Assembly: GCA_963704755.1 (NCBI GenBank)
Contig: OY969938.1
Span: 1,920,001 to 1,952,000, forward strand
Origin: an uncultured Chloroflexia bacterium
GTDB taxonomy: Bacteria; Chloroflexota; Anaerolineae; Anaerolineales; Anaerolineaceae
Length of the DNA: 32,000 bases
Direction of reading: 5' to 3'
How positions within the stretch are numbered: position 1 is the stretch's first letter; every line of letters starts with the position of its first letter. Of the stretch, positions 2,773 to 23,603 are shown piece after piece. The notes beneath the pieces are model-generated. The model saw only the letters and a list, made by a program, of their open reading frames with translations, had not been told where the DNA came from and searched no databases. The translations under genes and the position numbers were made by a program.

Positions 2773-3933
2773 CTAACAATACTCTACCTGCACATCCTTA
2801 TTAAACCCGGTCAGCACGGCTGCGATCTGGTCGATCAGGTATCGCCGGATGGAGATGTTTTTGGGCAGGAGCGGGTTCTGATAGAACGGGTTGATCGACT
2901 GGCCGACCACGAACTGGACGGTATCGGCGACCAGCATCTCGCGCGCCAGCAGATAAGCCCCGTTGTTAGCCGCTTCCAGCCGGTCCAGGCTGCCGCCGGA
3001 CTTTTCCAGCAGGTCCAGCACGGCCGCCAGGGTCAGGATGCCCTCGGTGACCAGGTCGATGCCCGGCAGTTTGCCGATCGGCGGGACGGCGTCGTCCAGC
3101 GAGCTCATCACCGTCTCGACCTTGGTCTTCAGAAAACCGGCCACGATGTTGGCCGTGGTGCCGCCGCAAACTACCTTGCGGCCCTTAAAATCGAGCAAAC
3201 GATCCACGTAGACGTAATCAAAGCCGTTATCCAGAGGCGGGCCGCTAAACACCATCAAGGCGTTGCGTTTGCGCAGCAGCAGGCCCACAAAGGTCGCATC
3301 GTCGCCGGCCTTCCAGCCGTACAACTGGTTGGTCATGTTCATCACCCCGTTCACGATGGTGTGGGCGGCAAAGATACGGTTTTCGAAGCCGGCTTCGATG
3401 AACCTGGCCACGTTGTCCCAGCCCCAGCCGAAATTCATGGTCGTCCCCAGGCCGGCGTACAGCACGCCGTCACTGATCAGCCCGAGGAAATCGCCCATTT
3501 CCAGTTTACCTTCGGTCACCGAGATAGTCTTCTTGAGGATCTTTTCTTTAACACTCTCCAGCTTGACAATCTTGCCATTCTTCAGGTAAAAAGGCTCGGG
3601 GTTATCGAAGTTGATCACCCGGAAGGTGTCATCGAGATGGTTGACGATCAGGATGGTGAAGGTGGCGTAGGCGATATGGCGCTCTTTGCAGACCGGCAGC
3701 GTGCGAATGACCGTGTCGATCACCTCGCGCAGCTCGATCTTTTCACGCAGCATGGTGGTGATAATCTCGGTCGTCATGGTGGCCAGGATGTTGGCCTTGA
3801 CCCCGCTGCCCAGGCCGTCGGAAAGCACCACCGTGGTAATGCCGGCCGACTTGATCACCCGGACCTGGTCGCCGCACAGCTCCTCGCCGGACTTGTTCAA
3901 GTTGTGCTGGAAGATGTCCAGAAAGGCATCCAC
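2773..3933 (-). CDS. SpoIIE-type PP2C serine phosphatase with about 170-aa C-terminal domain of unknown function
   Basis: The PP2C metal-ligand motifs VLSDGLGSG, LISDGV and GDDATFVGL are present. The GTG start directly abuts the TAG of the upstream PAS gene, with AAGGAG 9 nt upstream. Size and architecture resemble the phosphatases found in hydrogenase regulatory loci (HfsC-like). Confidence 0.8.
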   Translation of the reverse strand: MDAFLDIFQHNLNKSGEELCGDQVRVIKSAGITTVVLSDGLGSGVKANILATMTTEIITTMLREKIELREVIDTVIRTLPVCKERHIAYATFTILIVNHLDDTFRVINFDNPEPFYLKNGKIVKLESVKEKILKKTISVTEGKLEMGDFLGLISDGVLYAGLGTTMNFGWGWDNVARFIEAGFENRIFAAHTIVNGVMNMTNQLYGWKAGDDATFVGLLLRKRNALMVFSGPPLDNGFDYVYVDRLLDFKGRKVVCGGTTANIVAGFLKTKVETVMSSLDDAVPPIGKLPGIDLVTEGILTLAAVLDLLEKSGGSLDRLEAANNGAYLLAREMLVADTVQFVVGQSINPFYQNPLLPKNISIRRYLIDQIAAVLTGFNKDVQVEYC

Positions 3934-4428
3934 CTAATACTGCTCCTTTTCGACCAGTTCCAGCAGCTTGAGCAGGCTGACCTTGGTTTCTGCGGTCGTT
4001 TCGCCCAGCAGGCTGGCGATCTTCTGGGCCACGCTCATCTGCTTATCCACCACCGCGTGAACCTTCAGGATCGTCTCGCGCTTGAGCACGTTCATTTCTT
4101 CGCGCTGCTTCCATTCGTGGGTCATATCCACCAGGATGCAGGCTACCACGCCTTCTTCGCGCACCGGGAAGATCACCCGCCGCAGGTAGAGCCCATACTG
4201 GGGATATTCCTTTTCCAGGCCGGCCATGGCTTCGCCGGTCTGCCAGACTTTCACGAAGTCGTTCATATCCCCCAGCCAATTCTCGGCCGGCTGGCCGAGA
4301 ATTTCATCGATGCTGCACTGGAACATCTTGCACAAGGCCGGGTTGACCACCTGGACCGTCATTTGCGGGTTGACCACCACCAGGCCGTTCGGGTCATAGT
4401 CCCACAGCAGTTCCCAGAGACTCTTCAT
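3934..4428 (-). CDS. Stand-alone PAS-domain protein with C-terminal helical tail
   Basis: The sequence has a PAS-like pattern (LLWDYDPNGLVVVNPQMTVQVVNPALCKMFQCSIDEILGQP ... VACILVDMTHEWK). A strong GGAGAGGAG Shine-Dalgarno site is present, and the gene is translationally coupled to the phosphatase. Confidence 0.65.
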   Translation of the reverse strand: MKSLWELLWDYDPNGLVVVNPQMTVQVVNPALCKMFQCSIDEILGQPAENWLGDMNDFVKVWQTGEAMAGLEKEYPQYGLYLRRVIFPVREEGVVACILVDMTHEWKQREEMNVLKRETILKVHAVVDKQMSVAQKIASLLGETTAETKVSLLKLLELVEKEQY

Positions 4429-4467
4429 GCGCGTATCTCCTCTCCTGAAGCACTTTCTGCGCCGGCG

Positions 4468-4794
4468 CTAGCGGCCCCAGCTTGATTCTACAGGCGAAGC
4501 ATTTTCCTTCAAAGTGATTTCCGCCCGCGGCTGAAGGCCCTCCAGGCGGGTGAGCACCTCATTGACCAATTTCTGGCGGACATTGCCCTTGTGAACGCCC
4601 AGGATCAGGTCGTCACCCAGTTTCAGCGCCACACCTTTGGCACACACGCCCAGGCAAAAGGCGCCTTTCAATTGCAGCCGGTTTTCCAGGTGATATTCGG
4701 CAAACAACGCCTGCAGTTCCGGCAGCACTTCATAGACACCTAACTGGTGGCAGGCGGACCCCATACAAATGTAAAGCGTTGGAAGATCATCCAT
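4468..4794 (-). CDS. Thioredoxin-like [2Fe-2S] ferredoxin (small NuoE-fold protein)
   Basis: The Cys pattern CMGSAC ... CLGVC (C-x4-C ... C-x3-C) is typical of thioredoxin-like 2Fe-2S ferredoxins found in HydABC/Hox-type loci. Confidence 0.7.
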   Translation of the reverse strand: MDDLPTLYICMGSACHQLGVYEVLPELQALFAEYHLENRLQLKGAFCLGVCAKGVALKLGDDLILGVHKGNVRQKLVNEVLTRLEGLQPRAEITLKENASPVESSWGR

Positions 4795-4822
4795 CGCAGC
4801 AACCTTTTTAGCAAATTGCTTT

Positions 4823-4867
4823 GGGTGCTTGTTTTGGGCGGCGAAACGCCGCCCAAAACAAGCACCC
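4823..4867. repeat. Perfect 21-bp palindrome (apex GGCG-AAA-CGCC) inside the operon, between the NuoF-like and ferredoxin genes
   Basis: gggtgcttgttttgggcggcg (4823-4843) is the exact reverse complement of 4847-4867. It lies in the 160-bp gap between 4794 and 4955. Confidence 0.75.
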
Positions 4868-4954
4868 TGAAATATCTTTTGGAATGGTTCTTATCTTACT
4901 TGGAAACTACTCAGGCAGGTTCAGTAGGGTGTTCCTTCTGCGCTGGCTGTGTAA

Positions 4955-6598
4955 TTACCTTACTTTCGAATAGACCGGGATCTCGACCGGAACCGGCTCG
5001 GTGTTGGCTCGAATTTTCTCCAGGTACTCCTCGCGGAAATAGCGCAGCGAGCTGAGGATCGGGTTGGGAGCCGCTTTCCCCAGGCCGCACAGGCTGGTCG
5101 AGGCCACCATTTCGCACAGGTATTCCAGCATCTCCAGGTCGGATTCGACCGCCTTGCCTTCGATAAATTTGTTCAACAAGTTGTAAATCTTCACATTTCC
5201 GATCCGGCAGGGGGTGCATTTCCCGCAGGATTCGTCCATGCTGAACTCCATGAAATACTTGGCCACGTTGAGGATGCTGGAAGTATCGTCGATGACGATG
5301 ATACCACCTGAACCCATGATCGAGCCCAAACGGTTCAAAGTTTCGTAATCCACCGGCGTATCCAGCAGCAATTCGGGGATGCAGCCGCCGGAAGGCCCGC
5401 CGGTCTGCACCGCTTTGAAGTCGTGCCCGTCCGGGACACCCCCGCCGATATCGTACACAATTTCACGCAGGGTGATGCCCATGGGTACCTCGATCAAGCC
5501 GGTGTTCTGGATCTTGCCGGTCAGGGCGAACACTTTTGTGCCCTTGCTCTTTTCGGTGCCGACCGAGGCAAACCAGGCTCCGCCATTGCGGATGATGTGC
5601 GGCACATTGGCATAGGTCTCGACGTTGTTGATCAGGGTCGGCCGGCCTTCCAACCCGCTGATCGAGGGGTAAGGCGGCCGCGAGCGCGGCGTGCCCCGGT
5701 CGCCCTCGATCGAATTGATCAGAGCCGTCTCTTCGCCGCAGACGAAGGCCCCCGCCCCCAGGCGGATGTCGATGTTGAACGAAAAGTCCGAGCCGGCGAT
5801 GTTCTCACCCAGCAGCCCGTTGCGTTCGGCCTGGCGGATGGCCACCTTGAGGCGTTTGACCGCCAGCGGGTACTCGGCGCGCACGTACACGTAGCCCTGC
5901 CGGGCCCCTACCGCATAGGCCGCGATGATCATGCCTTCCAGCACGGCGTGCGGGTCGCTTTCCAGGATCGAGCGGTCCATGAAAGCGCCCGGGTCGCCCT
6001 CGTCCGCGTTGCAGATCAGGTATTTCAAATCATTGGCCTGGTCGTGGACCAACTGCCATTTGGTGCCGGTGGGGAAACCGCTGCCACCGCGCCCGCGCAG
6101 CCCGCTGGACTTGATTTCATCTACAACCCCCTGCGGCGACATGGCCGTAATGGCTTTGACCTCACCCAGGTAGCCGCCCTGAGCGATGTAATCTTCGATC
6201 TTTTCCGGGTTGACTATGCCGGAATGTTTGAGGGTCACCTTGTGCTGGCGGGTGAAAAACGGTGTGGTGGTGTCGATGACCAGGCGTTTTACCGGCTGGG
6301 CATTGAGCGAATCGAGGATCTCCGGCACATCCTCGGGGGAGACGGTTTTGTAGAGGATGCCGTCTGGTTGAATCGAGACGATCGGCCCGGCCGCGCACAG
6401 CCCCATACAGCCCACCGGCTTGATGCCCACCACGTTCTCCAGGCCGCGCTGCTTGATCTCTTTTTCCAGGCTGGCGATAATCAGCGAACTGTTCGATGAA
6501 ACACAGCCTGTACCGGTGCACACGTGGATTACGTGCTGGTAGCGCGCCTGCATTTCGTGTTCCTTTTCAGCAATTTGGTTCAGCGTTGACTCATCCAT
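4955..6598 (-). CDS. NuoF/HoxF-like NAD(H)-binding flavoprotein (51-kDa family) with N-terminal thioredoxin-like 2Fe-2S domain
   Basis: N-terminal CTGTGC ... CMGLC. FMN site GLRGRGGSGFPTG. NADH site GAGAFVCGEETALI. N3 4Fe-4S motif SCGKCTPCR ... C. There is no C-terminal 2x[4Fe-4S] extension. The start overlaps the upstream gene by 8 nt. Confidence 0.9.
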   Translation of the reverse strand: MDESTLNQIAEKEHEMQARYQHVIHVCTGTGCVSSNSSLIIASLEKEIKQRGLENVVGIKPVGCMGLCAAGPIVSIQPDGILYKTVSPEDVPEILDSLNAQPVKRLVIDTTTPFFTRQHKVTLKHSGIVNPEKIEDYIAQGGYLGEVKAITAMSPQGVVDEIKSSGLRGRGGSGFPTGTKWQLVHDQANDLKYLICNADEGDPGAFMDRSILESDPHAVLEGMIIAAYAVGARQGYVYVRAEYPLAVKRLKVAIRQAERNGLLGENIAGSDFSFNIDIRLGAGAFVCGEETALINSIEGDRGTPRSRPPYPSISGLEGRPTLINNVETYANVPHIIRNGGAWFASVGTEKSKGTKVFALTGKIQNTGLIEVPMGITLREIVYDIGGGVPDGHDFKAVQTGGPSGGCIPELLLDTPVDYETLNRLGSIMGSGGIIVIDDTSSILNVAKYFMEFSMDESCGKCTPCRIGNVKIYNLLNKFIEGKAVESDLEMLEYLCEMVASTSLCGLGKAAPNPILSSLRYFREEYLEKIRANTEPVPVEIPVYSKVR

Positions 6599-7103
6599 GG
6601 TTAAGCCACTCCTCGATTTTGCCTTTCATCTCGTCCACTGACATTTTTCCGGTAATCTTGCCGTCCAGGATCATCACCGGGGCCAGGCCGCAGGCGCCCA
6701 GGCAGCGCGCAGTCAGGAAAGAAAGCTTGTTGTCGCTGGTGGTCTGGTTGGGATCCAGGCCGTATTTTTCTTTCATGTATTCGACGATTTTGTCGTTGCC
6801 TTTGACGTAACAGGCCGTGCCGGTGCACAGGATCAGCGAATGTTCGCCGGCCGGCTTGCTGGTAAAACTGTTATAGAAGGTCGCGACGCCGTAAACTTTG
6901 GCCAGGGGCACTTTTAATTCCTGGGCCACGTAAGCCATGGCGTCCGGGTCGATGTAGCCGAATAAATCCTGGATCACGTGCAGGGTCTGGATCAAGGACC
7001 TGGGCGAGAATTTGTTATTCTTCATGGTGACGTACACCAGTTTCCAGCGGCGGTCACTCAGGTCCACTTCAATGCGAGTATGGGTAGGGGTAGCGATGGT
7101 CAT
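6591..7103 (-). CDS. NuoE/HoxE-like 24-kDa-family [2Fe-2S] subunit
   Basis: CTGTACYVKG ... CLGACGLAPVM is the Complex I 24-kDa / 2Fe-2S thioredoxin-like signature. The 170-aa size is typical of HoxE/HydC. Confidence 0.88.
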   Translation of the reverse strand: MTIATPTHTRIEVDLSDRRWKLVYVTMKNNKFSPRSLIQTLHVIQDLFGYIDPDAMAYVAQELKVPLAKVYGVATFYNSFTSKPAGEHSLILCTGTACYVKGNDKIVEYMKEKYGLDPNQTTSDNKLSFLTARCLGACGLAPVMILDGKITGKMSVDEMKGKIEEWLNHG

Positions 7104-7146
7104 AACTTAAATTTCCTTTTGTTGGAAATAGAGATTTAAGAAGAAG

Positions 7147-7309
7147 AACCACAGAGCACACAGAGTTCACAGAGTAAAGAAAGAAAAGAAAAAATTTGCT
7201 GTTTGAAAGAACAATGGCTTAAAGTGGATCGGCCCGGTCTCCAGACCGAGGCCGCTCTTCTGCTCTGGTCAGAAAGACTAACCACGGAGGCACGGAGAAC
7301 ACGGAGAAG
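7147..7309. repeat. Composite dispersed element, copy A: triple heptad (CACAGAG x3), purine-rich spacer, 33-nt core, then triple heptad (CACGGAG x3)
   Basis: aaccacagagcacacagagttcacagag at 7147-7174. Core gatcggcccggtctccagaccgaggccgctctt at 7227-7259. aaccacggaggcacggagaacacggagaag at 7280-7309. The same core, and the CACGGAG triplet (one of its two flanking triplets), recur in the second copy at 23604-23753. Confidence 0.8.
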
Positions 7310-7382
7310 AATTTTTTGGGGAAGGAAATTGCACATGACAGCAAAATTTCCTACCATTTAATCTTTTCCATAAAAATCTTTC

Positions 7383-7409
7383 CTCCGTGTTCTCCGTGCC
7401 TCCGTGGTT
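7383..7409. repeat. Inverted copy of the CACGGAG triple heptad (27-bp perfect inverted repeat with 7280-7306)
   Basis: ctccgtgttctccgtgcctccgtggtt is the exact reverse complement of aaccacggaggcacggagaacacggag. The arms are separated by 76 nt. Confidence 0.85.
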
Positions 7410-7429
7410 GATTTCTCTTTGTTAATTTC

Positions 7430-8266
7430 CTACATAAATTTGTTGACGATTAACCGGAAAATATCGGTTTCGGTGATGATTCCGCACAGGCTGCGGGCGG
7501 CATCGAGCACCGGCAGGCTGTGGATCTTGTTCTCCTGCATCAGTGCGGCCGCCTTGGTGATCGGGTCGGTTTCGCTGACGGTGATTGGGGCGCTGGTCAT
7601 GATGAAGCGAGCCGGTGTGGTCAGGATCTGCTTGGTGATCTCGTACTGTCCCTCGGCCGCCGCGCCCGGCGCGGCGCTCAGCAAATCGGTGCGGGTGATG
7701 ATGCCCACCAGCAGCCCTTCCTGGACGACCGGCAGCGCACGGATGTTCTTGACCGCCATCAGGCGTTGAGCGTCCAGCAGGGTGGTGGCCGGGTGGATCG
7801 TCTGCACATCACGGCTCATGTAGTCGCTCACCAGGATCATCTCGCGCAGCGAGGGGAATTCTTCGATCAGCAGGCGGAACATGTCGGTCGAGGTGACGAT
7901 CCCGACCAGGTTTTTATCGTCCGCCACCACCGGCAAGGCGGCGATCTTGTTTTCCTCCATCATGCGGGCCGCTTTGGCCGCGCGGGCGTTGCCGTTGATG
8001 GTGATCACCGGGCGCGACATCAACTTTTCCAGTGGGGTGTTGCCCACCCGGCGGTATTGGTCCCAGGCGTCTTTCATCACGGTGGTCACATCGGCCCGCA
8101 GCAAATCGCGTTTGGTGACAATGCCCACCAACTGGCCCTCGTCCACCACCGGCAAAGCGCGGATGCTCTCCCGGTTCATGACGCGCAGCGCATCGTGCAA
8201 GCGCATGTGCGGGTCGGCTTTGATAATCTGGGTGGTCATCCATTGACGGACCAGGTCTTTTTTCAT
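7430..8266 (-). CDS. CBS-domain protein (four CBS repeats, two Bateman modules)
   Basis: Four repeats follow the pattern hhhLPVVDxxxLVGIITxxDLh (for example IRALPVVDEGQLVGIVTKRDLL and IHSLPVLDAARSLCGIITETDIF). A GGAGG Shine-Dalgarno site is present. Confidence 0.88.
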   Translation of the reverse strand: MKKDLVRQWMTTQIIKADPHMRLHDALRVMNRESIRALPVVDEGQLVGIVTKRDLLRADVTTVMKDAWDQYRRVGNTPLEKLMSRPVITINGNARAAKAARMMEENKIAALPVVADDKNLVGIVTSTDMFRLLIEEFPSLREMILVSDYMSRDVQTIHPATTLLDAQRLMAVKNIRALPVVQEGLLVGIITRTDLLSAAPGAAAEGQYEITKQILTTPARFIMTSAPITVSETDPITKAAALMQENKIHSLPVLDAARSLCGIITETDIFRLIVNKFM

Positions 8267-8410
8267 GATTGCCTCCGGTAAATAGGTACGGTCTTAATAT
8301 ACTCAGCCCCAGGCGATAGCGCATCGCCTGGGGCTTTAATTATCGCTAACCAAATGGTTGAAAAAAAGAGGGCCGCTCTCAATAAAATGGTTGAGAATAA
8401 ATGTTTTAAA

Positions 8411-8461
8411 TTCGAGATGGGGTAGTTTTTGGGCTTCGCCCAAAAACTACCCCATCTCGAA
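8411..8461. repeat. Perfect 24-bp palindrome (apex GGGC-TTC-GCCC)
   Basis: ttcgagatggggtagtttttgggc (8411-8434) is the exact reverse complement of 8438-8461. It lies between the permease stop codon (8466) and the start of the CBS gene (8266). Confidence 0.75.
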
Positions 8462-8465
8462 ATTT

Positions 8466-9221
8466 TTAAGAAACAGCCTTGCGATAAACTCGGGTGGCCC
8501 ACCACAGCACCAGCGCGGTCAACGGCACCATCACCAGGTAGGCTTCCAGCACTTTGCCGTCCAACAGTGTCCCGGCGGCGAGGACGCGGGAGGCCTCTAC
8601 GACGTAGTACATCGGGTTGAAGTGGGCGATGGCCTGCAGCCATTTCGGGCCAAGCGAGAGCGGCAGCAGCACGCCGGCCAGCAGGGTCAGCGGCAGTTGC
8701 AGGCCGGTGACCACGGCGGCCAGGCTGCCGATCTGTTTCAGGATCAGCCCCAGGCTGCCCGAGGCCGCCGAAATGACCGCGGTCAGCAGGGCCAGGAGCA
8801 GGAACAGCACCGCCAGGCCGGCCCAATGCAGGTGAAAGCCGAACGGCGCGGCGATCAGGACCACCAGCAAGGCCGGCACGATGAACATGACCACGTCCTT
8901 GAGCACCGACCCCATCAGCAGCGAGAACCGGCTGGCGGGCGTGACCCGCAAGCGCTCGATGACGCCGCTCTGCAATTCCCAAATTACGATCCAGCCGGAC
9001 CCCATCCCGGCGCCAAACGCCATCAGGACCAGGATACCCGGGACGAACAGGTCCAGCACATTGCCCGAGCCCAACATCTGTTTCATGCCGTCCAGCAGAG
9101 GCGCGAACAGGGCCAGGTACAGCAGAGGTGTGGTCAACCCAGAGATCAGCCAGACCGGCTGGCGCAGGGTTTCCAGCATCTTTCTCCAAAACAATAAGCG
9201 AATCTCGCGGAGCATTTTCAT
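8466..9221 (-). CDS. ABC-2 type transporter permease (DrrB-like)
   Basis: About 6 hydrophobic segments with an ABC-2 family layout. Its ATG overlaps the TAA of the upstream ATPase gene by 1 nt (TAATG). Confidence 0.82.
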   Translation of the reverse strand: MKMLREIRLLFWRKMLETLRQPVWLISGLTTPLLYLALFAPLLDGMKQMLGSGNVLDLFVPGILVLMAFGAGMGSGWIVIWELQSGVIERLRVTPASRFSLLMGSVLKDVVMFIVPALLVVLIAAPFGFHLHWAGLAVLFLLLALLTAVISAASGSLGLILKQIGSLAAVVTGLQLPLTLLAGVLLPLSLGPKWLQAIAHFNPMYYVVEASRVLAAGTLLDGKVLEAYLVMVPLTALVLWWATRVYRKAVS

Positions 9222-10210
9222 TACAGACCTTCCTTAGCACCGGCGTCGCGCATGGAGCGCCCGGTTTTCTTGAGAAACACGTCATCCAGGGATGGCTGGG
9301 AGAGGGAAACCGTATCGAGAACGGTACCGTTGGCTTTGAGCCTATCGAAGACCAGCGGCAGGCTCTTCGCACCGTCTTCGACGTATAAATGGATCTGCTC
9401 ACCCTGCAGGTGCGATTCGCGCACGTAGGCCTGGCCCCCCAGGTACTGCTGGATCTTGTCCAGCTCGGCCCCATCCGATTTGGGCTTGATGACGATCACG
9501 TCGCCGGAAATTTGCTGCTTCAACGCGTGCGGGGTGCCCTCGGCCACAATCTGGCCGTGATCGATGATCGCCAGGCGGTCGGCCAGCTCGTCGGCCTCTT
9601 CCAGGTAGTGGGTGGTCAGGAATACGGTCGTGCCGCCGGCGCGCAGCTCGCGGATCTGGTCCCACAGGTTGGCCCGGTTTTGCGGGTCCAGGCCGGTGGT
9701 GGGCTCGTCCAGAAAGAGCACTTCCGGCCGGTGGAGGATGCCCAGGGCGATCTCCAGGCGGCGCTTCTGCCCGCCCGAAAAAGTGCGCACGATGCGGTCG
9801 ATCAGCTCGCTCAACTCGAACGAAGCGATCAATTCGGCCGCGCGCTTTTCGGTCTCCTCGCGGCTCATCCCGTAAAGCTGGCCGGCCAGCAGCAGATTCT
9901 CGCGCCCGGTCGCCGACAGGTCGGCCCCACCCAACTGGCTCACAAAACCAATCCGCCGGCGGACTCCCTGGGGCTGTTTTTGTACGTCCACCCCGGCCAC
10001 AAATGCTTTGCCCTGGTCGATGGGCAAAAGGGTAGTCAACATACGCAGGGTGGTGGTTTTGCCGGCCCCGTTTGGGCCTAAAAATCCAAAAATTTCACCC
10101 CGCTTTACGGCTAAATCGACCCCTTTAACGGCCTCGATCGATTTCTTCTTCCCTTTTTCCGCATGGTAGAAGCTTTTTTTAAGATCGATCGTTTCGATTG
10201 TGCTTTCCAT
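9221..10210 (-). CDS. ABC transporter ATP-binding protein (DrrA/daunorubicin-resistance-like)
   Basis: Walker A GPNGAGKTT, signature FSGGQKRRLEIA and Walker B LFLDEPTTGLD, plus the C-terminal extension typical of DrrA-like ATPases. GGAGG Shine-Dalgarno site. Confidence 0.9.
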   Translation of the reverse strand: MESTIETIDLKKSFYHAEKGKKKSIEAVKGVDLAVKRGEIFGFLGPNGAGKTTTLRMLTTLLPIDQGKAFVAGVDVQKQPQGVRRRIGFVSQLGGADLSATGRENLLLAGQLYGMSREETEKRAAELIASFELSELIDRIVRTFSGGQKRRLEIALGILHRPEVLFLDEPTTGLDPQNRANLWDQIRELRAGGTTVFLTTHYLEEADELADRLAIIDHGQIVAEGTPHALKQQISGDVIVIKPKSDGAELDKIQQYLGGQAYVRESHLQGEQIHLYVEDGAKSLPLVFDRLKANGTVLDTVSLSQPSLDDVFLKKTGRSMRDAGAKEGL

Positions 10211-10347
10211 TAATTCGCCTCCATAAGTCAGTCATTCCATCCGTCTTGCTAACCGGATGCTGCTTATAGTAGCGGTTCAATGGGTGAAGCGCTTTCACCC
10301 CGGCCGGGTGATTCCGGGGGTGAGAAGTATATAGTTGCTTTGCAGTA

Positions 10348-11214
10348 TTATTCGGCTTTGTGCAAAACCTCGCGCAGGGCGGCTGCCCATTCGAACGGCA
10401 TATCCATAAACGAGCCATGATGGCCGGGGAAGATCACCAGTTCGCAGTCAAGTTGCTGCGCCAGGAGCTGATTGGCCCGCACATACCAGGTATTGCGCTT
10501 TACTCCCCACTCCCCTACCGCAATCACCATACGGACCCCGTTTTGCTTGATCTTCTCCACGCCCGGCAGGTAATTGGTCACCGGTAGCAGCTCCAGTTTT
10601 ACCAATACCTCGGAAGCAGCCCGATCGCTCAGATACGGCTCGCGGCTGTGCTTGCGGTGGCCATTGACCGGACCGGTAGCTTTGATCAACGCTCGGAACG
10701 GAAGCTGGGTGCCGAGCATAAACCGTAACGCGGCCCAGGAAGGGCCCATGCGAAAAGCCATTGCGTACACACCGGCAAAAAAGCGCTGCCATTTTCTGGC
10801 TTCCGGCAGCAGCCGCGGGAGCGGGGCTTCGTGGATGATGGCCGCCTTCAGCGCCCCCGGCTGGGTCTTGGCCATATCCAGGGCAATCACTGCCCCGCTG
10901 CTGTTGCCCAAAACGAAAGCCGACCTCTCGCCGGCTGCATGCAGCACAGCGACCGCGTCCCGGCTTTGCTGGCTGATCTCGAAGTTTTGCGGGGCATTCA
11001 TGCTGCTCCGGCCGTTGGCGCGCCGGTCGTAGGTAATCACCCGGTATTCATCGGACAGGATGTCGGCGACGAAAGAATACTGCCAGCCATCTCCCCCGGC
11101 CGGCGGAATCAGCAACAACGGCTTGCCTGCACCACGCACTTCATAGTACAGTTCATCCCCCTCGGTCGCTACCAGGCCAGATTGGATCACACCTTGTAGA
11201 TTTGGCATTTTCAA
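10348..11214 (-). CDS. Alpha/beta-fold hydrolase
   Basis: Nucleophile elbow GNSSG, an HGG-like oxyanion region (LLLIPPAGGDG) and a C-terminal FPGHHGSF (catalytic His region). The TTG at 11214 has the best Shine-Dalgarno spacing. An alternative ATG lies at 11208. Confidence 0.8.
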   Translation of the reverse strand: MKMPNLQGVIQSGLVATEGDELYYEVRGAGKPLLLIPPAGGDGWQYSFVADILSDEYRVITYDRRANGRSSMNAPQNFEISQQSRDAVAVLHAAGERSAFVLGNSSGAVIALDMAKTQPGALKAAIIHEAPLPRLLPEARKWQRFFAGVYAMAFRMGPSWAALRFMLGTQLPFRALIKATGPVNGHRKHSREPYLSDRAASEVLVKLELLPVTNYLPGVEKIKQNGVRMVIAVGEWGVKRNTWYVRANQLLAQQLDCELVIFPGHHGSFMDMPFEWAAALREVLHKAE

Positions 11215-11367
11215 TGCCGTCCTTTCGCTCGATTAGATCATTACCGACACTTCCGTTTCAGGCGAGCGGTATTCTCAAATTTGGATATTTTCTCGTTTGC
11301 ATCGAGAAACCTTGATATCTTTAAAAGACTGTAACTTCTCTGGCCCATATTGAGTAGTCCCTGAATT

Positions 11368-11967
11368 TTAACGGTTCTCGATTGACCCTGACTGCCAGGG
11401 TTTACCCAGCAGACCATAGAAGAACAAAGCACCCAGGTCGAATTGAACCTTCTTCGGCAGATCGGTCCGGGTGATGCTGGAATTGAACATACCGATGTAC
11501 ATCAGGATGGCCTCATCGGACAGTTCCGCAGCGATGCTGCCTTCCTGTTTGCCCTGGGCGATAAGATCGCGAAAGATTGGCAGGATGCGAGTCTGGTAGT
11601 ATTCCGCCAGAAATTGTTGCAGAGATGGATCCTGGTACGCTTCGGCCTGGAAAAAATCCTCGCTATACTGCTGAGTCGTATCCATCCGGACCGTAATCAT
11701 CTGCTCGAATTTTTCTCGAAATGGAATGGGGCTATCGACCAGCGCCTTGAATTCCCCTGCCTTGATGTTCATAAAAGTAAAGACAGCCTGTCGGGCCAGA
11801 TTTTCCTTGTTTCCAAAGAAATTATAGATGCTCACCTGCGAAACGTCCGCTCTTTGGGCGATTTCTGCGATACCGACCGCCTTGACACCCTGGGCAGCAA
11901 ACAATTCAAATGCCGCTTGCAAAATTTTGTCCTTGATCTTTTCTCTGCGCCGTTCAAATCCGTTCAT
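11368..11967 (-). CDS. TetR/AcrR family transcriptional regulator
   Basis: The N-terminal helix-turn-helix FELFAAQGVKAVGIAEIAQRADVSQVSIYNFFGNKENL is the TetR_N signature. The 199-aa size fits the family. Confidence 0.9.
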   Translation of the reverse strand: MNGFERRREKIKDKILQAAFELFAAQGVKAVGIAEIAQRADVSQVSIYNFFGNKENLARQAVFTFMNIKAGEFKALVDSPIPFREKFEQMITVRMDTTQQYSEDFFQAEAYQDPSLQQFLAEYYQTRILPIFRDLIAQGKQEGSIAAELSDEAILMYIGMFNSSITRTDLPKKVQFDLGALFFYGLLGKPWQSGSIENR

Positions 11968-12124
11968 TTATTCCGCCTAATGCGATTTTGGAGAGTATTT
12001 AAGGAATGCCAAGAATTTGAACGTATCGGCATTTGAGCTGGGGAGCGAAACTCCTCGAAAACCGCAACAGCTTTGTGCTTTGCTATTGATTAATCACGTT
12101 CTGTCAGGGCTAGGATACCTTAAG

Positions 12125-12155
12125 TTGTGAAATATATCAATGATCAGTTTCACAA
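12125..12155. promoter_or_regulatory. Candidate TetR operator O1 (TTGTGAAA-N15-TTTCACAA)
   Basis: An 8-bp perfect inverted repeat with a 15-nt spacer ends 3 nt upstream of the -35 box. It has the same half-site and spacing as O2. Confidence 0.55.
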
Positions 12156-12158
12156 GTA

Positions 12159-12186
12159 TTGACAATCCGGCCAGAAAGGCTACAAT
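12159..12186 (+). promoter_or_regulatory. Sigma70-type promoter for the CocE/NonD hydrolase gene
   Basis: TTGACA (12159-12164), a 16-nt spacer, then TACAAT (12181-12186). An AAGAGGA Shine-Dalgarno precedes the ATG at 12234. Confidence 0.6.
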
Positions 12187-12218
12187 TATGAAATATATTT
12201 TGTTTATTTTTCATAATT
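12184..12218. promoter_or_regulatory. Candidate TetR operator O2 (AATTATGAAA-N15-TTTCATAATT)
   Basis: A 10-bp perfect inverted repeat with a 15-nt spacer overlaps the -10 box and the predicted transcription start. Confidence 0.55.
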
Positions 12219-12233
12219 TAAGAGGATTGCTAC

Positions 12234-13862
12234 ATGACCTTAATGACCAGAGCTATTGCCAGGGCTTACCATCTGCCTAGAGCCGAAACATACCATATCC
12301 TCGTCGAGAAGAACTTACCCGTCCTTCTGCCCGATGGGGTCACCCTTTATGCCGACCATTTTTACTCACCGGACCTGCCCGATCGGCCGACGCTTTTGAT
12401 CCGTACAGCGTATGGCAAGGATCCGGCCGGGTTTGTGGGGCGGTTGTTCGCCGAACGCGGCTTTCAAGTGGTCATTCAAAGCGCACGCGGCACCGACGAA
12501 TCGGGAGGCGTGTTCGATCCCTTCCGGCAGGAAGGCGAGGATGGTGCGGCAACCATCGCCTGGCTGAAAACGCAGCCCTGGTTCACCGGCGAGCTGGTCT
12601 TGAGCGGAGCAAGCTACCTGGGCTATACCCAATGGGCACTCGCCGCTAAAGCCGGTGCTACAATCAAAGCCTATTCCACCCAGACCATCAGCGCCGATCT
12701 GCACAGTATGCTTTATTTTGGAGGCCCACTGGCCCTGGAAATGTGGATCGGATGGCTGTCTTCTATTCATACCGCCAAAACACCGCTGCAATTGGTCGGC
12801 CTCAATCGCAAGATCAAGAAGACCGTCGAGCAGCTTCCATTGATCGAAATCGACCAGCTCTCGTTCGATAAAAAGTACTCCTTCTGGCAGCAATGGTTGG
12901 AACACAAAGACCCTACCGACCCATATTGGGCCAAAGGCGATTTTCGCCAGGAGATTGGCGAAATCGATGCGCCTAACCTGATGATCGATGGCTGGTACGA
13001 CTTCTTCCTGCCTCACGAACTGCGCGATTACCGGGCACTGGTCGAATCCGGGCATTCGCCCTATCTGCTGATCGGCCCCTGGACGCATTTCGACACCTCC
13101 CTGCAATTCACGGCCATCCGTGAGGGCATCGCCTGGCTACGCGGGCATCTGTTGGGCGAGCGCAACAGACTGCCGGAATCACCCGTTCGCGTATATTTGA
13201 TGGGGGCAAATAAATGGATGAATTTTTCCACCTGGCCGCCGGAAGGCTCCAGTAGCCAGAACTGGTATTTACAATGCACAGGTAACCTGGCAAACACGCC
13301 TCCCCCCGCCTGCCCTCCGGACCGGTACCGCTACGATCCGGCCGATCCTACGCCCAGCGTGGGCGGCGCCGGGCGGACCATCGGTCGAGGCGCCGGCTCG
13401 CAGGATAACCGGGCCTTGGAAGCCCGCCCAGATGTCCTCACTTACACGACAGAGGCTTTACAAAAGGACTTGGAGATCATCGGCCCGGTTTCAGCGGAAC
13501 TATTCGTCCGTTCCAGCCTGGAATACACTGACTTCTTTGTACGCGTGTGCGATGTCTTTCCGGACGGCAAATCGATGAACGTTTGCGATGGCATCCTGCG
13601 CCTGGCACCCGGGCAGCCGGCCGCACTGGCGGATGGCTGCAAGAAGATCCGCGTCGAGCTATGGCCCACCGCCTACCAGTTCAAACAAGGGCATCGCCTG
13701 AGGGTACAGGTCTCCAGCGGATCCTTTCCCCGTTTTGCCCGCAACCTGGGCGCCGGCGAGCCGATCGCTACCGCCACGGCGATGATACCGGCCGACCAGT
13801 CGATTTATCATGATCCCGAACACCCCTCCGTGATTTTCCTGCCGGTGTTTACGGATCGGTGA
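12234..13862 (+). CDS. CocE/NonD family hydrolase (S15 X-Pro dipeptidyl-peptidase fold)
   Basis: N-terminal LPDGVTLYADHFYSP...PTLLIRTAYGK, nucleophile GASYLGYTQW and a C-terminal beta-sandwich motif GHRLRVQVSSGSFPRF. Confidence 0.88.
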   Translation: MTLMTRAIARAYHLPRAETYHILVEKNLPVLLPDGVTLYADHFYSPDLPDRPTLLIRTAYGKDPAGFVGRLFAERGFQVVIQSARGTDESGGVFDPFRQEGEDGAATIAWLKTQPWFTGELVLSGASYLGYTQWALAAKAGATIKAYSTQTISADLHSMLYFGGPLALEMWIGWLSSIHTAKTPLQLVGLNRKIKKTVEQLPLIEIDQLSFDKKYSFWQQWLEHKDPTDPYWAKGDFRQEIGEIDAPNLMIDGWYDFFLPHELRDYRALVESGHSPYLLIGPWTHFDTSLQFTAIREGIAWLRGHLLGERNRLPESPVRVYLMGANKWMNFSTWPPEGSSSQNWYLQCTGNLANTPPPACPPDRYRYDPADPTPSVGGAGRTIGRGAGSQDNRALEARPDVLTYTTEALQKDLEIIGPVSAELFVRSSLEYTDFFVRVCDVFPDGKSMNVCDGILRLAPGQPAALADGCKKIRVELWPTAYQFKQGHRLRVQVSSGSFPRFARNLGAGEPIATATAMIPADQSIYHDPEHPSVIFLPVFTDR

Positions 13863-13961
13863 ATTTTTCCAGTATTCAGACAGGATCTTAATCCAGGCAA
13901 TTCCCTTACCGCAATTTACGATGTTTCCTTGTGGATCTTTTCCTATGTTAAAATCAGACCC

Positions 13962-14645
13962 ATGGAGCACCCAAACCCTACCCGTTCCCCCAATCATGAT
14001 AAGACCCGGCCGCCAATCGCGATCTCCAAGGACCGCCTGGTATCTTTCAGCGATGCGGTTATCGCGATTATTATCACCATCATGGTTTTAAACATCCCGC
14101 TGCCGGACACCTTCGACAGCGCCGCGATCTTATACCTGTTAAAGTCTATTCTGGTGTTCTTCGTCAGCTTTATTGTGGTGGGCTCGCAATGGAACAAGCA
14201 TCATTTCTTGATGGAACGCGTCCAGACCATCTCCAACATGATCATCTGGCGCAATTTGTTGTTCCTGTTTTTTCTGTCTCTCATTCCCATCTTCACCAAA
14301 TGGGTCATGCAGAACCCCGATGAGCCCGTCCCTGCCATCGGCTATGCCATCGTCTTTTTGCTGGTCAACGGAAGCTACCTTTTCATCTGGACTAGCGTGA
14401 TGCGCCGCGGCGATAACAAAGACGTCCACCGGGATTTCGATCAAATGAGCCCACGGGGTAAATTCTTCTGGTGGCTGCGATTTGCCTTGATGCTGGCCCT
14501 CTTTTCAGGCATTGCCCTGTTCACGCTATCCAACCCGCGTATTGCAACGATCCTTTTCATCGCCTTTCCGGTAGCCTCTTCGCTGATCAACCTTTTTATC
14601 GAGAACAACCGCAGTTTCGGGATCGCAAGTGACCACTCGGCTTGA
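13962..14645 (+). CDS. TMEM175-like (DUF1211) potassium channel family membrane protein
   Basis: The signature RLVSFSDAVIAIIITIMVL (RxxxFSD in TM1) is followed by about 6 TM segments. The track ORF begins at a TTG at 13929, but I prefer the ATG at 13962. Confidence 0.75.
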   Translation: MEHPNPTRSPNHDKTRPPIAISKDRLVSFSDAVIAIIITIMVLNIPLPDTFDSAAILYLLKSILVFFVSFIVVGSQWNKHHFLMERVQTISNMIIWRNLLFLFFLSLIPIFTKWVMQNPDEPVPAIGYAIVFLLVNGSYLFIWTSVMRRGDNKDVHRDFDQMSPRGKFFWWLRFALMLALFSGIALFTLSNPRIATILFIAFPVASSLINLFIENNRSFGIASDHSA

Positions 14646-14651
14646 GGGGGA

Positions 14652-15137
14652 TTTCAGTGATCCGGTATTTCAGTGATTCAGTGTTTCAGTGATTCGGTAT
14701 TTCAGTGATTCAGTTTTTCAGTGATTCAGTTTTTCAGTGATTCAGTGTCTCGGTGAAGAAAAGTGTCAGGGAAGTGATACTGTGTTTCAGTGATTCAGTA
14801 TCTCGGTGAAGAAAAGTGTCAGGGAAGTGAGACAGTGATTAAGTGAAATAGTGAGGCAGTGAAACACCGCAACACTGGAACACCGAAGCACTGAAACACC
14901 GCAACACTGAAACACCGAAGCACTGGAACACCGAAGCACTGAAACACCGCAACACTGAAACACCGAAGCACTGGAACACCGAAGCACTGGAACACCGCAA
15001 CACCGCAACACTGAAACACCGCAACACTGGAACACCGAAACACTAAATCACCGAAGCACTGGAACACCGAAACACTGAATCACCGAAGTACTGAAACACC
15101 GCAACACCGAATCACTTCCCCTGACACTTAGTTCTTC
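14652..15137. repeat. Octamer minisatellite / foldback array
   Basis: The left part holds about 12 units of tttCAGTG/attCAGTG. A 46-nt direct repeat (14732-14777 and 14785-14830, 1 mismatch) carries the box gaagaaaagtgtcagggaagtga. About 36 octamers follow in an unbroken 8-nt phase (14831-15117), alternating nnnCACCG and nnnCACTG. The terminal inverted box tcacttcccctgacacttagttcttc (15112-15137) closes the array. Confidence 0.9.
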
Positions 15138-15781
15138 CCGATCGTCACATAGCCTTCCTGGATGGCATACAGCGCGGCCTGGGTGCGGCTGTCGAGCTGT
15201 AATTTGGCCAGAATACGGCTGACGTGCGAGTGGACGGTCGCCCGGCTGACGACCATCTTTTCGGCGATCTCCTGGTTGTTCAGCCCCTGGGCGATGCAGG
15301 TCAAGACCTCTTTTTCCCGTTCGGTCAACGTCTCCGGAGCGGCTTTGGGCGCCGGTGGTTGAGACAGCTCGGCCAGCAGCTTGCGCGCGATGGCCGGGTG
15401 CAGGGACGATTCGCCGCGCTGGACCTGGTGGATGGCCCGGATCAGGTCATCCGGGTCCGAATCTTTCAATAAATAGCCGGCCGCGCCGGCCTTGATGGCC
15501 GCAAACACTTTATCGTCCGTGGTGAAGCTGGTCAACACCAGTACGTGGGCGTCCGGGTCCAGGCTGCGCATCTTTTGAATGGCTTCGATGCCATCCATGA
15601 CCGGCATGACCAGGTCCATCAGCACCACGTCCGGCCGCAGGGACGCGTATTTCTCCAACGCCTCGGCGCCGTTGGCGCATTCACCGGCCACTTCCAGGTC
15701 CGGCTCGGTTTCCAGCATAGCAACCATGCCCTTGCGCACCACCGGGTGATCGTCAACGACCAGGATCTTGATCTTCGCCAT
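15128..15781 (-). CDS. NarL/LuxR-family response regulator (REC + HTH_LuxR)
   Basis: VDDHPVVRKG, phospho-acceptor region DVVLMDLVMPVMDG and the LuxR helix-turn-helix LTEREKEVLTCIAQGLNNQEIAEKMVVSRATVHSHVSRILAKL. GGAGG Shine-Dalgarno site. Confidence 0.92.
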   Translation of the reverse strand: MAKIKILVVDDHPVVRKGMVAMLETEPDLEVAGECANGAEALEKYASLRPDVVLMDLVMPVMDGIEAIQKMRSLDPDAHVLVLTSFTTDDKVFAAIKAGAAGYLLKDSDPDDLIRAIHQVQRGESSLHPAIARKLLAELSQPPAPKAAPETLTEREKEVLTCIAQGLNNQEIAEKMVVSRATVHSHVSRILAKLQLDSRTQAALYAIQEGYVTIGKN

Positions 15782-17363
15782 ACGGCACCTCCACCTGAAT
15801 GAGCGTACCCGAGCCGGGTGCGCTTTGGATCGACAATTTCCCGCCCATAGCCTGCACTCTTTCCTGCATGTTCTTCAACCCCAGGCCGTCCGGCGGGACC
15901 CGGCCCACATCGAACCCGCGACCGTCATCACGAACGCGCAGGCGTACCTGCCCGGCCGCCTGGTCCAGGTCCACCCACAGGCGGCCCGCCCCGGCGTGCT
16001 TGATCACGTTATTGAAGGCCTCCTGGGCGATGCGATACAGGTTATCTTCCACGTCGCGTGGCAGAGGTTCCGCCAACGCCAACTGTTGGAATACCTCGAT
16101 GCTGCTGCGGCCTTCTACCGCGTTCAGGCGGTGCTGCAAGGCGCCCACCAACCCGTTTTTCTCCAGCGAGGCCGGGCGCAGCTCGAAGATCAGCAGGCGC
16201 ATCTCCCCCAGCACATTGCGGGCAGCGTTATCCAGCTCGGCCAGGTACTTGTCCACCGCTTCGAAACGGCCTTTCGCCTGCTGGCGGCGGGCCGCGCGGG
16301 TAAATAAGGTCATGGCGTACAGCGATTGGCTGATCGAATCGTGCAGATCACGCGCCAGGCGGGCGCGCTCCTCGGCTACCGCGGTCAATTGAATACGCCG
16401 GTACAGGCGGGCATGATCGATGGCCACTGCCACCTGCCCGGCAAAGGAACTCGCCGTAGTAATATCGTGGGGCAGAAAATACCCGGGGTGCTGGTAAATC
16501 TCCAGGAAGCCGGAGGGCGTCTCCTGGCCGCTCCACAGCGGGACCAACAGGATCGAGACCGGCTCTCCTCCCTCGCCGGCAGCCCCTTTGACGTTGAACA
16601 AGACCGGTTCGCGCCGCTGCGCGTTCTCGCTCCAGGCCGAAAGGCTGCCTTCGTCCAGCGGTGAGGGCGCCACCCGCCCGGTCTGGTAGGCGATTTGCAT
16701 ATGGCCGTTATCGTCCGCCAGGCGGATGACGCAGCCCAGCGCAGCCGTCAGCCGGACGGCTTCCTGGGCGATCAAATCGAGCACCTCTTCCAGGTCCACT
16801 TTGTTGAGGATCGCCCGGGTGATCTCTTGCAGGCTGAGCGCCTGGTGAAGCTGCTGGCTGGTCACCTCGTACAGGCGGGCGTTGTCCAGCGCCAGGGCCA
16901 TCGAGCGGGTGACCGCGTCGGCCAGGCGCACCTGCTCGGCCGGCAGGCGGAAGCCGGGCTGCTGCCAGGCGAACAGCACCAACCCCAGCAGGGTGCCGTG
17001 ATTGGCCAGCGGGTAGATCAGGAAAGACTTGGTTTTAAGGCCGGCCAGGAGAGAAGGCCCGAACTGCCGGCGCTCAGCCTCCGTCACCACCGAAAAGGGC
17101 CGCGGGCTCTCGATCAGATGCGCCAGCAGCACGTCCACGGCCGGGTCGAGCGGGCCGGACCAGAAAGCCTGTTTTTCGGAAAGCGAAAGCATGCCCAGGG
17201 CAATGACCGGGTCGAGCGGCCCGGCCGGGTCGTTGCGCCGATAGACAAAGACCTGATCGGCGGTGGTCAGTTCGATCAGCGTCCAGGTCAGTTCTTCCAG
17301 CGCCACCCGGGTCGATTCGACCGCAGGCAGTTCGGGTAATGTGGAAAACGAGATTTCAACCAT
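15753..17363 (-). CDS. GAF-GAF sensor histidine kinase (HisKA_3 + HATPase_c)
   Basis: H-box LARDLHDSISQSLYAM (HisKA_3), N-box AQEAFNNVIKHAGA, G-boxes DDGRGF and GLGLKNMQERV, and two GAF-like regions at the N-terminus. It overlaps the regulator gene by 29 nt. Confidence 0.88.
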   Translation of the reverse strand: MVEISFSTLPELPAVESTRVALEELTWTLIELTTADQVFVYRRNDPAGPLDPVIALGMLSLSEKQAFWSGPLDPAVDVLLAHLIESPRPFSVVTEAERRQFGPSLLAGLKTKSFLIYPLANHGTLLGLVLFAWQQPGFRLPAEQVRLADAVTRSMALALDNARLYEVTSQQLHQALSLQEITRAILNKVDLEEVLDLIAQEAVRLTAALGCVIRLADDNGHMQIAYQTGRVAPSPLDEGSLSAWSENAQRREPVLFNVKGAAGEGGEPVSILLVPLWSGQETPSGFLEIYQHPGYFLPHDITTASSFAGQVAVAIDHARLYRRIQLTAVAEERARLARDLHDSISQSLYAMTLFTRAARRQQAKGRFEAVDKYLAELDNAARNVLGEMRLLIFELRPASLEKNGLVGALQHRLNAVEGRSSIEVFQQLALAEPLPRDVEDNLYRIAQEAFNNVIKHAGAGRLWVDLDQAAGQVRLRVRDDGRGFDVGRVPPDGLGLKNMQERVQAMGGKLSIQSAPGSGTLIQVEVPYGEDQDPGR

Positions 17364-21932: not shown

Positions 21933-21991
21933 GCAGGTGTTTTTATTATTTTTTGTGTGCTTCGCACACAAAAAATAATAAAAACACCTGC
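21933..21991. repeat. Perfect 28-bp palindrome (apex GTGC-TTC-GCAC) in a divergent promoter region
   Basis: gcaggtgtttttattattttttgtgtgc (21933-21960) is the exact reverse complement of 21964-21991. It lies between the nfeD-like start (21874, -) and the GH1 start (22218, +). Confidence 0.8.
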
Positions 21992-23594: not shown

Positions 23595-23603
23595 AGAAAG
23601 AAT

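Follow-up and report, generated by a model that had tools for sequence, protein, structure and literature searches.

What does the diaphorase half of a hydrogenase do at a locus where no hydrogenase is encoded, and what is it doing in the company of a ferredoxin, a PAS protein and a phosphatase? The question is raised by five genes in a 32,000-nt stretch of DNA from an uncultured Chloroflexia bacterium (assembly GCA_963704755.1, contig OY969938.1, positions 1,920,001 to 1,952,000), which we call the window and in whose own positions all coordinates are given. A sequence-only reading had described the five as a tightly packed minus-strand set, proposed as a redox-sensing signalling module, and all of the open reading frames (ORFs) were found where it placed them: hoxE and hoxF, followed by genes for a small ferredoxin (Fd), a stand-alone PAS protein and a PP2C phosphatase (together, the cassette; the last three, the triad). 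The 8-nt overlap between the NuoE-like and NuoF-like genes holds from their coordinates, and the TAG of the PAS gene does abut the GTG of the phosphatase gene. The features concerned are the following.

Positions 6591-7103, minus strand: hoxE, the NuoE-like [2Fe-2S] subunit of the Hox diaphorase, 170 amino acids (aa).
Positions 4955-6598, minus strand: hoxF, the subunit binding NADH and flavin mononucleotide (FMN), with an N-terminal [2Fe-2S] domain and the N3 [4Fe-4S] site, 547 aa.
Positions 4823-4867, no strand: hairpin in the hoxF-Fd spacer with a perfect 21-bp stem and a 3-nt loop, lying where related operons carry hoxUYH.
Positions 4468-4794, minus strand: small thioredoxin-like [2Fe-2S] ferredoxin (Fd) in the HfsA position, 108 aa.
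Positions 3934-4428, minus strand: stand-alone PAS protein with a conserved C-terminal helix, equivalent to the C-terminal part of HydS/HfsB without its H-cluster domain, 164 aa.
Positions 2773-3933, minus strand: HfsC-type PP2C phosphatase, 386 aa, with a SpoIIE/RsbU-like domain in residues 1 to ~220.
Positions 2776-3270, minus strand: family-specific C-terminal alpha/beta domain of the phosphatase, residues 222-386.

Profile searches with Pfam and NCBIfam agreed with the earlier domain calls on all five proteins. The hoxE product matched 2Fe-2S_thioredx (PF01257, E 3e-43), and its top NCBIfam model was HoxE, at 203 bits just below the cutoff of 224. For the hoxF product, Pfam returned an N-terminal 2Fe-2S_thioredx domain, Complex1_51K, SLBB and NADH_4Fe-4S without a C-terminal Fer4; the sequence-only reading was thus correct that the C-terminal 2x[4Fe-4S] domain is missing, but this is the normal state for HoxF and not distinctive. 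The small Fd gave a sub-threshold match to 2Fe-2S_thioredx (20.8 bits against a cutoff of 24.8), the PAS protein matched PAS_9 and PAS_4 just under the Pfam cutoffs, and the phosphatase matched SpoIIE (E 5e-15).

The sequence-only reading had treated the NuoE/NuoF pair as a diaphorase without affiliation, and this part of it was overturned: by HoxF phylogeny and by synteny with hoxEFUYHW operons, the two proteins are true Hox (group 3d) subunits, HoxE and HoxF. The comparison drew on hox operons of other Anaerolineae and on 84 loci anchored on relatives of the phosphatase (all numbered with the prefix L); in the 84, ORFs were mapped with seed proteins and key assignments were checked by Pfam and NCBIfam. 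The order CBS-hoxE-hoxF-Fd-PAS-PP2C, beginning with a gene for a CBS-domain protein, recurs in six loci, namely the window, L003 (Bellilinea sp., assembly GCA_026003575.1), L004 (assembly JBFMBX01), L005, L085 and, in rearranged form, L006. In a neighbour-joining tree of HoxF built with our own distance code and 100 bootstraps, the window protein fell within the Hox-type clade, apart from the HydB type, in 100/100 replicates, and the six cassette sequences were monophyletic with the same support. The nearest HoxF proteins outside this clade belong to complete Anaerolineae/Chloroflexi hox operons (L170, 67.5% identity; L168, 64.9%; L167, from Levilinea sp., ~64.5%), and relatives from metagenomes at 59-63% identity, among which no close Anaerolineae protein turned up, all lie inside hoxEFUYH(W) operons. 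NuoF equivalog scores of the window HoxF were under cutoff, with the exception of one borderline model, and the ORF scan of the window placed no other complex I gene (nuoG, nuoCD, nuoB, nuoH-N) in the operon.

Complete Anaerolineae operons have the order GAF-domain kinase, response regulator, (CBS), hoxE, hoxF, hoxU, hoxY, hoxH, hoxW. In L168 and L170, hoxF is followed by genes for HoxU (at the level of the NCBIfam equivalog), HoxY, HoxH and HoxW, and HoxU is also encoded in L167. The counterparts of the upstream genes in the window are these.

Positions 7430-8266, minus strand: four-CBS-domain protein (Pfam CBS x4), directly upstream of hoxE.
Positions 15128-15781, minus strand: LuxR-type response regulator (Pfam).
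Positions 15753-17363, minus strand: GAF-HisKA_3 histidine kinase (Pfam).

The kinase-regulator pair stands just upstream of the hox genes, within 0.3-2.3 kb of CBS/hoxE, in L003, L085, L168 and L170; between the window and these relatives the regulator is 56-75% identical and the kinase 36-49%. Against L170, which has a four-CBS protein directly before hoxE, the window proteins reach 39% (kinase), 56% (regulator), 46% (CBS) and 60% (HoxE) identity in addition to the HoxF value given above. The window CBS protein is 61-62% identical to those of L003 and L085, and the one CBS protein of L168, encoded downstream of hoxW, is shorter and only weakly similar. In the window itself, ~7 kb of other genes separate the cassette from the kinase-regulator pair (15128-17363); the intervening genes at 8466-14645 include an ABC-2 transporter pair, an alpha/beta hydrolase, a TetR protein, an S15 peptidase and a TMEM175-like channel.

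By these gene comparisons, the window locus is shown to be a derived Hox ([NiFe] group 3d) operon and the positional orthologue of hoxEF in complete hoxEFUYHW operons. Its HoxE and HoxF are orthologous to those of the HoxEFUYH enzymes of cyanobacteria and Chloroflexota and retain all cofactor motifs; it differs from those enzymes in having no hoxU, hoxY, hoxH or hoxW and in an altered motif next to the FMN loop. As a Hox hydrogenase, it therefore has the HoxE and HoxF components, while HoxU, HoxY/HoxH and HoxW/hyp are missing: no HoxU, HoxY, HoxH, HoxW or hyp gene was found in the 32-kb window. The wider claim that a catalytic partner is absent locally also held, since none of the 20 other long ORFs scanned besides the five cassette genes encodes a hydrogenase, a formate dehydrogenase or a NuoG-like protein, and none of the six cassette loci has a hydrogenase gene within 10 kb. 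Given the shared neighbourhood and the orthology of HoxEF, hoxUYHW appear to have been replaced by Fd-PAS-PP2C at this locus; alternatively, an ancestor may have carried all the parts, as cyanobacteria do, with each lineage then losing one of them.

What has taken the place of the catalytic genes can be recognized from its relatives elsewhere. In the small Fd, residues C10, C15, C47 and C51 and a CMGSACH motif are invariant or nearly so among 68 homologues, and its homologue lies after hoxH in cyanobacteria and before HydS in Firmicutes. The earlier proposal that Fd, PAS and PP2C correspond to the tail that accompanies sensory [FeFe] hydrogenases was borne out: the PAS protein aligns with the HydS C-terminus over 162 of its 164 residues, and the phosphatase is 45% identical to the one in the HfsC position. 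The alignment, at 30% identity over 162 aa, was to the C-terminus of a 565-aa Firmicutes HydS (L082) with the domains Fer4, Fe_hyd_lg_C, FeS and PAS. The best-conserved segment of the PAS family is a C-terminal helix with invariant Thr residues rather than the PAS core; residues 130-149 (QMxVAQxIAxLLGETTAETK) are at least 90% conserved in 54 homologues, HydS C-termini included, and the helix is a candidate interaction surface or phospho-acceptor. The PAS and PP2C genes, which abut as TAG-GTG in the window and have 4-nt overlaps in L003, are predicted from these junctions to be translationally coupled.

The phosphatase family is strongly conserved over its full length, at 67-89% identity in Anaerolineae, 55-60% in filamentous cyanobacteria and 38-45% in Firmicutes, Thermotogae, Atribacteria and others. 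In the structural model (pLDDT, for predicted local distance difference test, 83), the N-terminal fold matched SpoIIE, the RsbU domain and RsbX at Foldseek E-values of 1e-14 to 1e-11. The Asp motifs GD22, SD39G, SD155G and DD211-212 are invariant across the family, and they agree with the metal-binding pattern of SpoIIE/RsbU. With the motifs invariant and the modelled fold matching, the protein is predicted to be a catalytically competent phosphatase of the SpoIIE/RsbU type. It resembles RsbP/RsbU of the Bacillus energy-stress branch in the SpoIIE/RsbU/RsbX-type fold and motifs and in its association with PAS as a presumed energy or redox input, but differs in that the PAS domain is on a separate polypeptide, the phosphatase has a unique C-terminal domain and no STAS, kinase or sigma-factor gene is nearby. 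That C-terminal domain (222-386) was modelled confidently as alpha/beta (pLDDT 90), and it had no Pfam match even at E 10 and no significant fold in the PDB, the best being a methylglyoxal-synthase-like structure at E 7e-3 and a template modelling (TM) score of ~0.41. A search with the domain returned 809 cluster representatives (50% clustering), in which it forms the C-terminal 160 residues of full-length proteins of ~380-400 aa, consistent with a fusion to PP2C.

Among the 84 loci, 21 adjoin Hox genes, 15 adjoin HydABC and 6 adjoin HoxEF only, the last all being of Chloroflexota/Anaerolineae type. The 21 Hox loci are essentially all cyanobacterial, with a few metagenome-assembled genomes (MAGs), and read hoxE-hoxF-hoxU-hoxY-hoxH, Fd (~88 aa), PAS (~170 aa), PP2C (~388 aa), hoxW-hypA-hypB. 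The triad stands between hoxH and hoxW-hypA-hypB in L001, L007-L015, L019, L020, L023, L025, L026, L029, L044 and L046; cyanobacteria with the triad in the hox cluster include Dapis, Okeania, Laspinema, Floridaenema, Planktothrix, Microseira, Limnospira and others. Firmicutes and relatives have the small Fd, a HydS of ~570 aa (Fer4 + Fe_hyd_lg_C + FeS + PAS), PP2C and a second [FeFe] hydrogenase-like protein, often with HydABC adjacent. HydABC has a short PAS-PP2C pair as its neighbour in Omnitrophica, KSB3 and others; Fd may be present or not, and a Rex gene is often directly adjacent. Some triads or dyads are orphans with nothing relevant nearby. A Rex-type repressor gene (Put_DNA-bind_N + CoA_binding) was seen directly beside short PAS-PP2C, with or without HydABC, in L032-L034, L038, L042, L079 and L083, and this adjacency suggests a recurrent link of the phosphatase module with NADH sensing. 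Single loci showed further neighbours. In an Anaerolineae MAG (L049, 6892-9060), the gene directly upstream of Fd-PAS-PP2C encodes 722 aa that include a Ser/Thr kinase domain, and in a Moduliflexus MAG (L035, 7251-8906) the triad stands divergent to an isolated NuoF-like gene of 551 aa.

The Firmicutes order Fd-HydS-PP2C-HfsD is the published hfsABCD architecture (PMC11837493, PMC5707799). In Thermoanaerobacterium, HfsA is a small protein, HfsB the HydS-type, PAS-bearing sensory [FeFe] hydrogenase, HfsC a Ser phosphatase and HfsD an [FeFe] hydrogenase, and a regulatory role of hfs is supported genetically (PMC5707799, PMC11837493). The cassette shares with hfsABCD and with the group C HydS loci of Thermotoga maritima and Ruminococcus albus the order of small Cys4 protein, PAS-bearing protein and PP2C with the same private C-terminal domain, at 38-45% identity for PP2C and ~30% for PAS. 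It departs from them in that its PAS protein lacks the H-cluster domain, the N-terminal Fer4 and the 4-Cys 'FeS' motif, HfsD is absent, and its partner is the [NiFe]-type HoxEF and not the [FeFe]-type HydABC. In the strict sense it is accordingly not a HydS/Hfs system, having no H-cluster domain and no HfsD, although the Cys4 Fd, the PAS protein with its C-terminal helix and the HfsC-type PP2C are all present. Alignment and gene order show the triad as an H-cluster-less form of the HfsA-HfsB(HydS)-HfsC set, which recurs beside NuoEF-containing hydrogenases of both metal types and beside Rex. The searchable literature, which was limited, held no account of the triad next to cyanobacterial hox or of a hydrogenase-less hoxEF-Fd-PAS-PP2C cassette, which is not proof of novelty, and nothing specific on Anaerolineae and hox or on Bellilinea hydrogenases.

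The cassette is also not a recent arrangement. The six loci keep it at 61-75% amino-acid identity, and in comparisons of the window with L003, L004, L005, L006 and L085 the ratio of non-synonymous to synonymous substitution rates (dN/dS) was 0.12-0.30 across the five genes (HoxE 0.19-0.20, HoxF 0.12-0.16) and 0.25-0.40 for CBS. Synonymous divergence (dS) was 0.75-2.7 over the five genes and CBS, and at least 0.94 for the five cassette genes. These substitution patterns show the hydrogenase-less arrangement as old and kept under purifying selection. On the sequence-only reading's own terms, orthologous operons with an adjacent hydrogenase would have marked this one as a deletion remnant; other Anaerolineae do have hoxU-hoxY-hoxH-hoxW straight after hoxF, but a recent deletion does not fit six divergent loci under purifying selection.

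The HoxF of the cassette clade has nonetheless changed at one site. Across all Hox clades, 210 columns of HoxF are at least 93% conserved. General loss of constraint in cassette HoxF was considered and rejected, with 7 clade-specific changes at conserved columns compared with 10 in the cyanobacterial clade. Four of the 7 cluster right after the FMN-binding glycine loop (residues 175-186), at a Hox-specific motif, GYPTGLKWxTVxK, that is kept in 27 of 28 hydrogenase-linked HoxF proteins; single substitutions occur in L096 (F for Y) and L168 (Q for L). All six cassette proteins read GFPT(G/A)xKWQxV(H/R)(D/N) instead. Judged from the alignment, this change, which includes K186D, bears the mark of a shift in function at the nucleotide/flavin site, and one might speculate that it bears on the preference for NADH or NADPH.

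What, then, could the cassette do? The best reading, which we consider about evenly poised between right and wrong, is that HoxEF and Fd-PAS-PP2C together form a phosphatase switch that responds to NAD(H) or ferredoxin. HoxEF would bind NADH/NAD+ at its FMN and equilibrate with that pool, and electrons would pass through the HoxEF Fe-S clusters to the small [2Fe-2S] ferredoxin. The PAS protein would read the redox state of the ferredoxin, or of HoxF itself, and through its conserved C-terminal helix would gate the translationally coupled PP2C, which would dephosphorylate a Ser/Thr phosphoprotein and so tune fermentative redox metabolism. What survives of the hydrogenase, its diaphorase half, would then serve as the module through which a redox-signalling device receives its input. 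The protein acted on may be a metabolic enzyme or the PAS protein, at its own GETTAETK tail; that the Thr-rich tail is a phospho-site is speculation. Like Rex, the cassette would presumably read the NAD(H) pool and control fermentation, and Rex genes adjoin PAS-PP2C in several loci; unlike Rex, to which it is unrelated in sequence and which binds NADH directly and also binds DNA, its output would be protein dephosphorylation.

The redox-sensing module of the sequence-only reading survives here in part: the kinship of the triad with the sensory [FeFe] tail and the lack of a local catalytic partner were both borne out, and the unaffiliated diaphorase has given way to HoxEF. Direct H2 sensing by a triad without an H-cluster is implausible, we infer, and what the triad's neighbours have in common appears to be Rex or a flavoprotein module for NAD(H) of the NuoEF type, and not an H2-activating metal site or H2. 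The Anaerolineae cassette keeps exactly a module of the NuoEF type. The more general proposal that the triad is an H-cluster-independent redox device that docks on NuoEF-type modules, with HoxEF as a dedicated 'sensory diaphorase' for NADH/NAD+ or ferredoxin and Ser/Thr dephosphorylation as its output, is more tentative, and we regard it as rather doubtful.

Several observations weigh against a phosphatase switch with HoxEF as its input. We know of no experimental record for a triad without an H-cluster. The PAS domain, besides scoring below the Pfam cutoffs, has no recognisable cofactor motif. Just as the sequence-only reading had noted, no small serine kinase (HATPase_c_2) or STAS protein is encoded by the long ORFs scanned in the window, and neither a kinase, a STAS protein or another substrate nor, nearby, an RsbV-like STAS protein, an RsbW-like kinase or a sigma factor was found in it. 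The genes are tightly packed, but the 160-bp hoxF-Fd spacer contains the hairpin at 4823-4867, which may split the five genes into two transcriptional sub-units and may uncouple expression of hoxEF from that of Fd-PAS-PP2C; the spacers of L003, L004 and L005 also hold hairpins, with differing sequences. Cyanobacteria have the triad alongside a complete hydrogenase, so that it need not use HoxEF as a sensor; it could simply regulate the enzyme. The genome-wide absence of hoxUYH is inferred from a ranked list of matches and not from the genome sequence, with [FeFe] hydrogenases and groups 3b/4 outside the search. Finally, the route by which HydS itself signals is not known (PMC13104023).

Turning to the alternatives, a split hydrogenase would pair HoxEF with hoxUYH or with an [FeFe] HydA from another part of the genome, with Fd-PAS-PP2C merely the regulator of that enzyme. 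Split hoxEF/hoxUYH clusters do occur in cyanobacteria, complete hox-hyp clusters of cyanobacteria hold the triad inside them, and nearly all conserved HoxF columns are retained in the cassette; in Spirulina subsalsa (L024), moreover, ORFs of the size of hoxW, hypA and hypB come after the triad and hoxEFUYH is not found within 10 kb, which indicates that the parts can disperse. Yet the cassette occupies the exact locus of hoxUYHW in sister Anaerolineae, its clade has lost the Hox-specific HoxF motif, and the window has no hyp or hoxW gene. We also looked for a hydrogenase elsewhere in the genome by searching a protein collection in which all five cassette proteins are present and assigned to the source contig (4,871,623 bp). 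A HoxH query from L093 matched a Desulfobulbus-type clade and was replaced by the Levilinea HoxH that it surfaced, for which the 120 closest matches were listed, down to 65% identity. These comprised ~38 Anaerolineae/Chloroflexi-type clusters at 74% identity or more, and no Hox-type HoxH assigned to the source contig, or to any contig of that length or more, was among the 120 closest relatives (at least 65%). Since conservation is higher in HoxH than in HoxF, a HoxH of the source genome that had co-evolved would be expected at ~70% identity or higher and hence among the 120 listed. This argues against an orphan Hox-type hydrogenase on the source contig, for a search limited to Hox-type HoxH that does not cover [FeFe] and other [NiFe] enzymes. 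In addition, each of the three Anaerolineae/Chloroflexi HoxH loci inspected, out of the ~38 related clusters, has its own adjacent hoxF, and two also have hoxE. On balance, a split hydrogenase is unlikely.

A second alternative, which we also find improbable, holds that HoxEF and Fd form an NADH:ferredoxin-type oxidoreductase for another pathway, whose activity PAS-PP2C sets according to a signal that PAS itself senses, perhaps through dephosphorylation of a subunit. The strong purifying selection on the cofactor sites of HoxE, HoxF and Fd would fit such an enzyme; PAS-PP2C also occurs without Fd or NuoEF, beside Rex or alone, which suggests that PAS has its own input; and L085 has an Rnf cluster a few kb upstream (Rnf/ApbE genes at 1-2703). 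However, no acceptor enzyme is encoded nearby in the six cassette loci, no kinase is present to make the phospho-site, and the small Fd travels with PAS-PP2C across phyla, not with HoxEF, and therefore belongs to the signalling set. Candidate kinases were noted in other settings: Firmicutes-type HydABC loci (L104, 9050-9968; L136, 7883-9867) encode, between NuoE and NuoF, a HATPase_c protein of ~185 aa together with a [2Fe-2S] ferredoxin of the thioredoxin-like kind, and loci of this type have a PAS-less HydS-like protein alongside a HATPase_c_2 protein and a DRTGG protein. The HATPase_c proteins of these loci are possible kinase partners of the HfsC-type phosphatase.

The remaining alternative, a decaying remnant of a hox operon without a function of its own after recent loss of hoxUYH, can draw on a gene order that equals the cyanobacterial-type operon minus hoxUYH, but it is effectively refuted by the dN/dS values, which together with dS are at the levels given above for every gene, and is made extremely improbable by reading frames that are all intact, cofactor ligands that are all kept, and loci too divergent to be near-identical strains.

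Both borders of the cassette were found as the sequence-only reading described them. Upstream, the size and the repeats of the 326-bp gap were both seen, and downstream the palindrome facing the convergent gene has perfect arms of 30 nt each.

Positions 7104-7429: repeat-bearing 326-bp spacer between the CBS gene and hoxE, with a 53-nt imperfect inverted repeat of CACGGAG(N2) units.
Positions 2630-2692: perfect palindrome with 30-nt arms (2630-2659 and 2663-2692), between the PP2C gene and a convergent ADP-ribosylglycohydrolase gene.

The palindrome is probably a bidirectional terminator. Long stem-loops of 21-33 bp, mostly perfect, with 3-nt loops and GC-rich stem tops, occur in intergenic regions throughout the window (27052-27120, 21933-21991, 8408-8464, 31932-31984, 2630-2692, 1202-1254, 4823-4867 and 1448-1492), and as a class they may be the terminators of this genome or an element resembling repetitive extragenic palindromes (REP-like). 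As one member of this window-wide class, the palindrome after the PP2C gene is not special to the cassette. Two blocks of the spacer at 7104-7429, one of 33 nt (100% identity) and one of 41 nt (93%), recur in the intergenic region 23595-23704 (also 23908-23928), and the blocks common to 7104-7429 and 23595-23704 include the CACGGAG(N2) 9-mer repeats. Since the gap between CBS and hoxE is only ~15-20 bp in L003, L085 and L170, the 326-bp spacer looks like an inserted dispersed repeat, similar to a miniature inverted-repeat transposable element (MITE-like).

How HydS/Hfs sensory hydrogenases transmit their signal matters in practice, as hfs mutations redirect fermentation towards ethanol. The triad is not tied to [FeFe] H-clusters, being found also with the [NiFe] Hox enzyme in many filamentous cyanobacteria and with HoxEF alone in one Anaerolineae clade, and this natural minimal cassette suggests that the common partner lies on the flavoprotein/ferredoxin side. 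It is also a simpler system, one that needs no metallocluster maturation, in which to ask what is sensed and what is dephosphorylated. For annotators, it is a warning not to infer a hydrogenase from hoxE and hoxF matches in an Anaerolineae genome. In one group of these bacteria, the arrangement has long been conserved, and it has probably turned the remaining NADH-binding subunits into part of a redox-signalling device.

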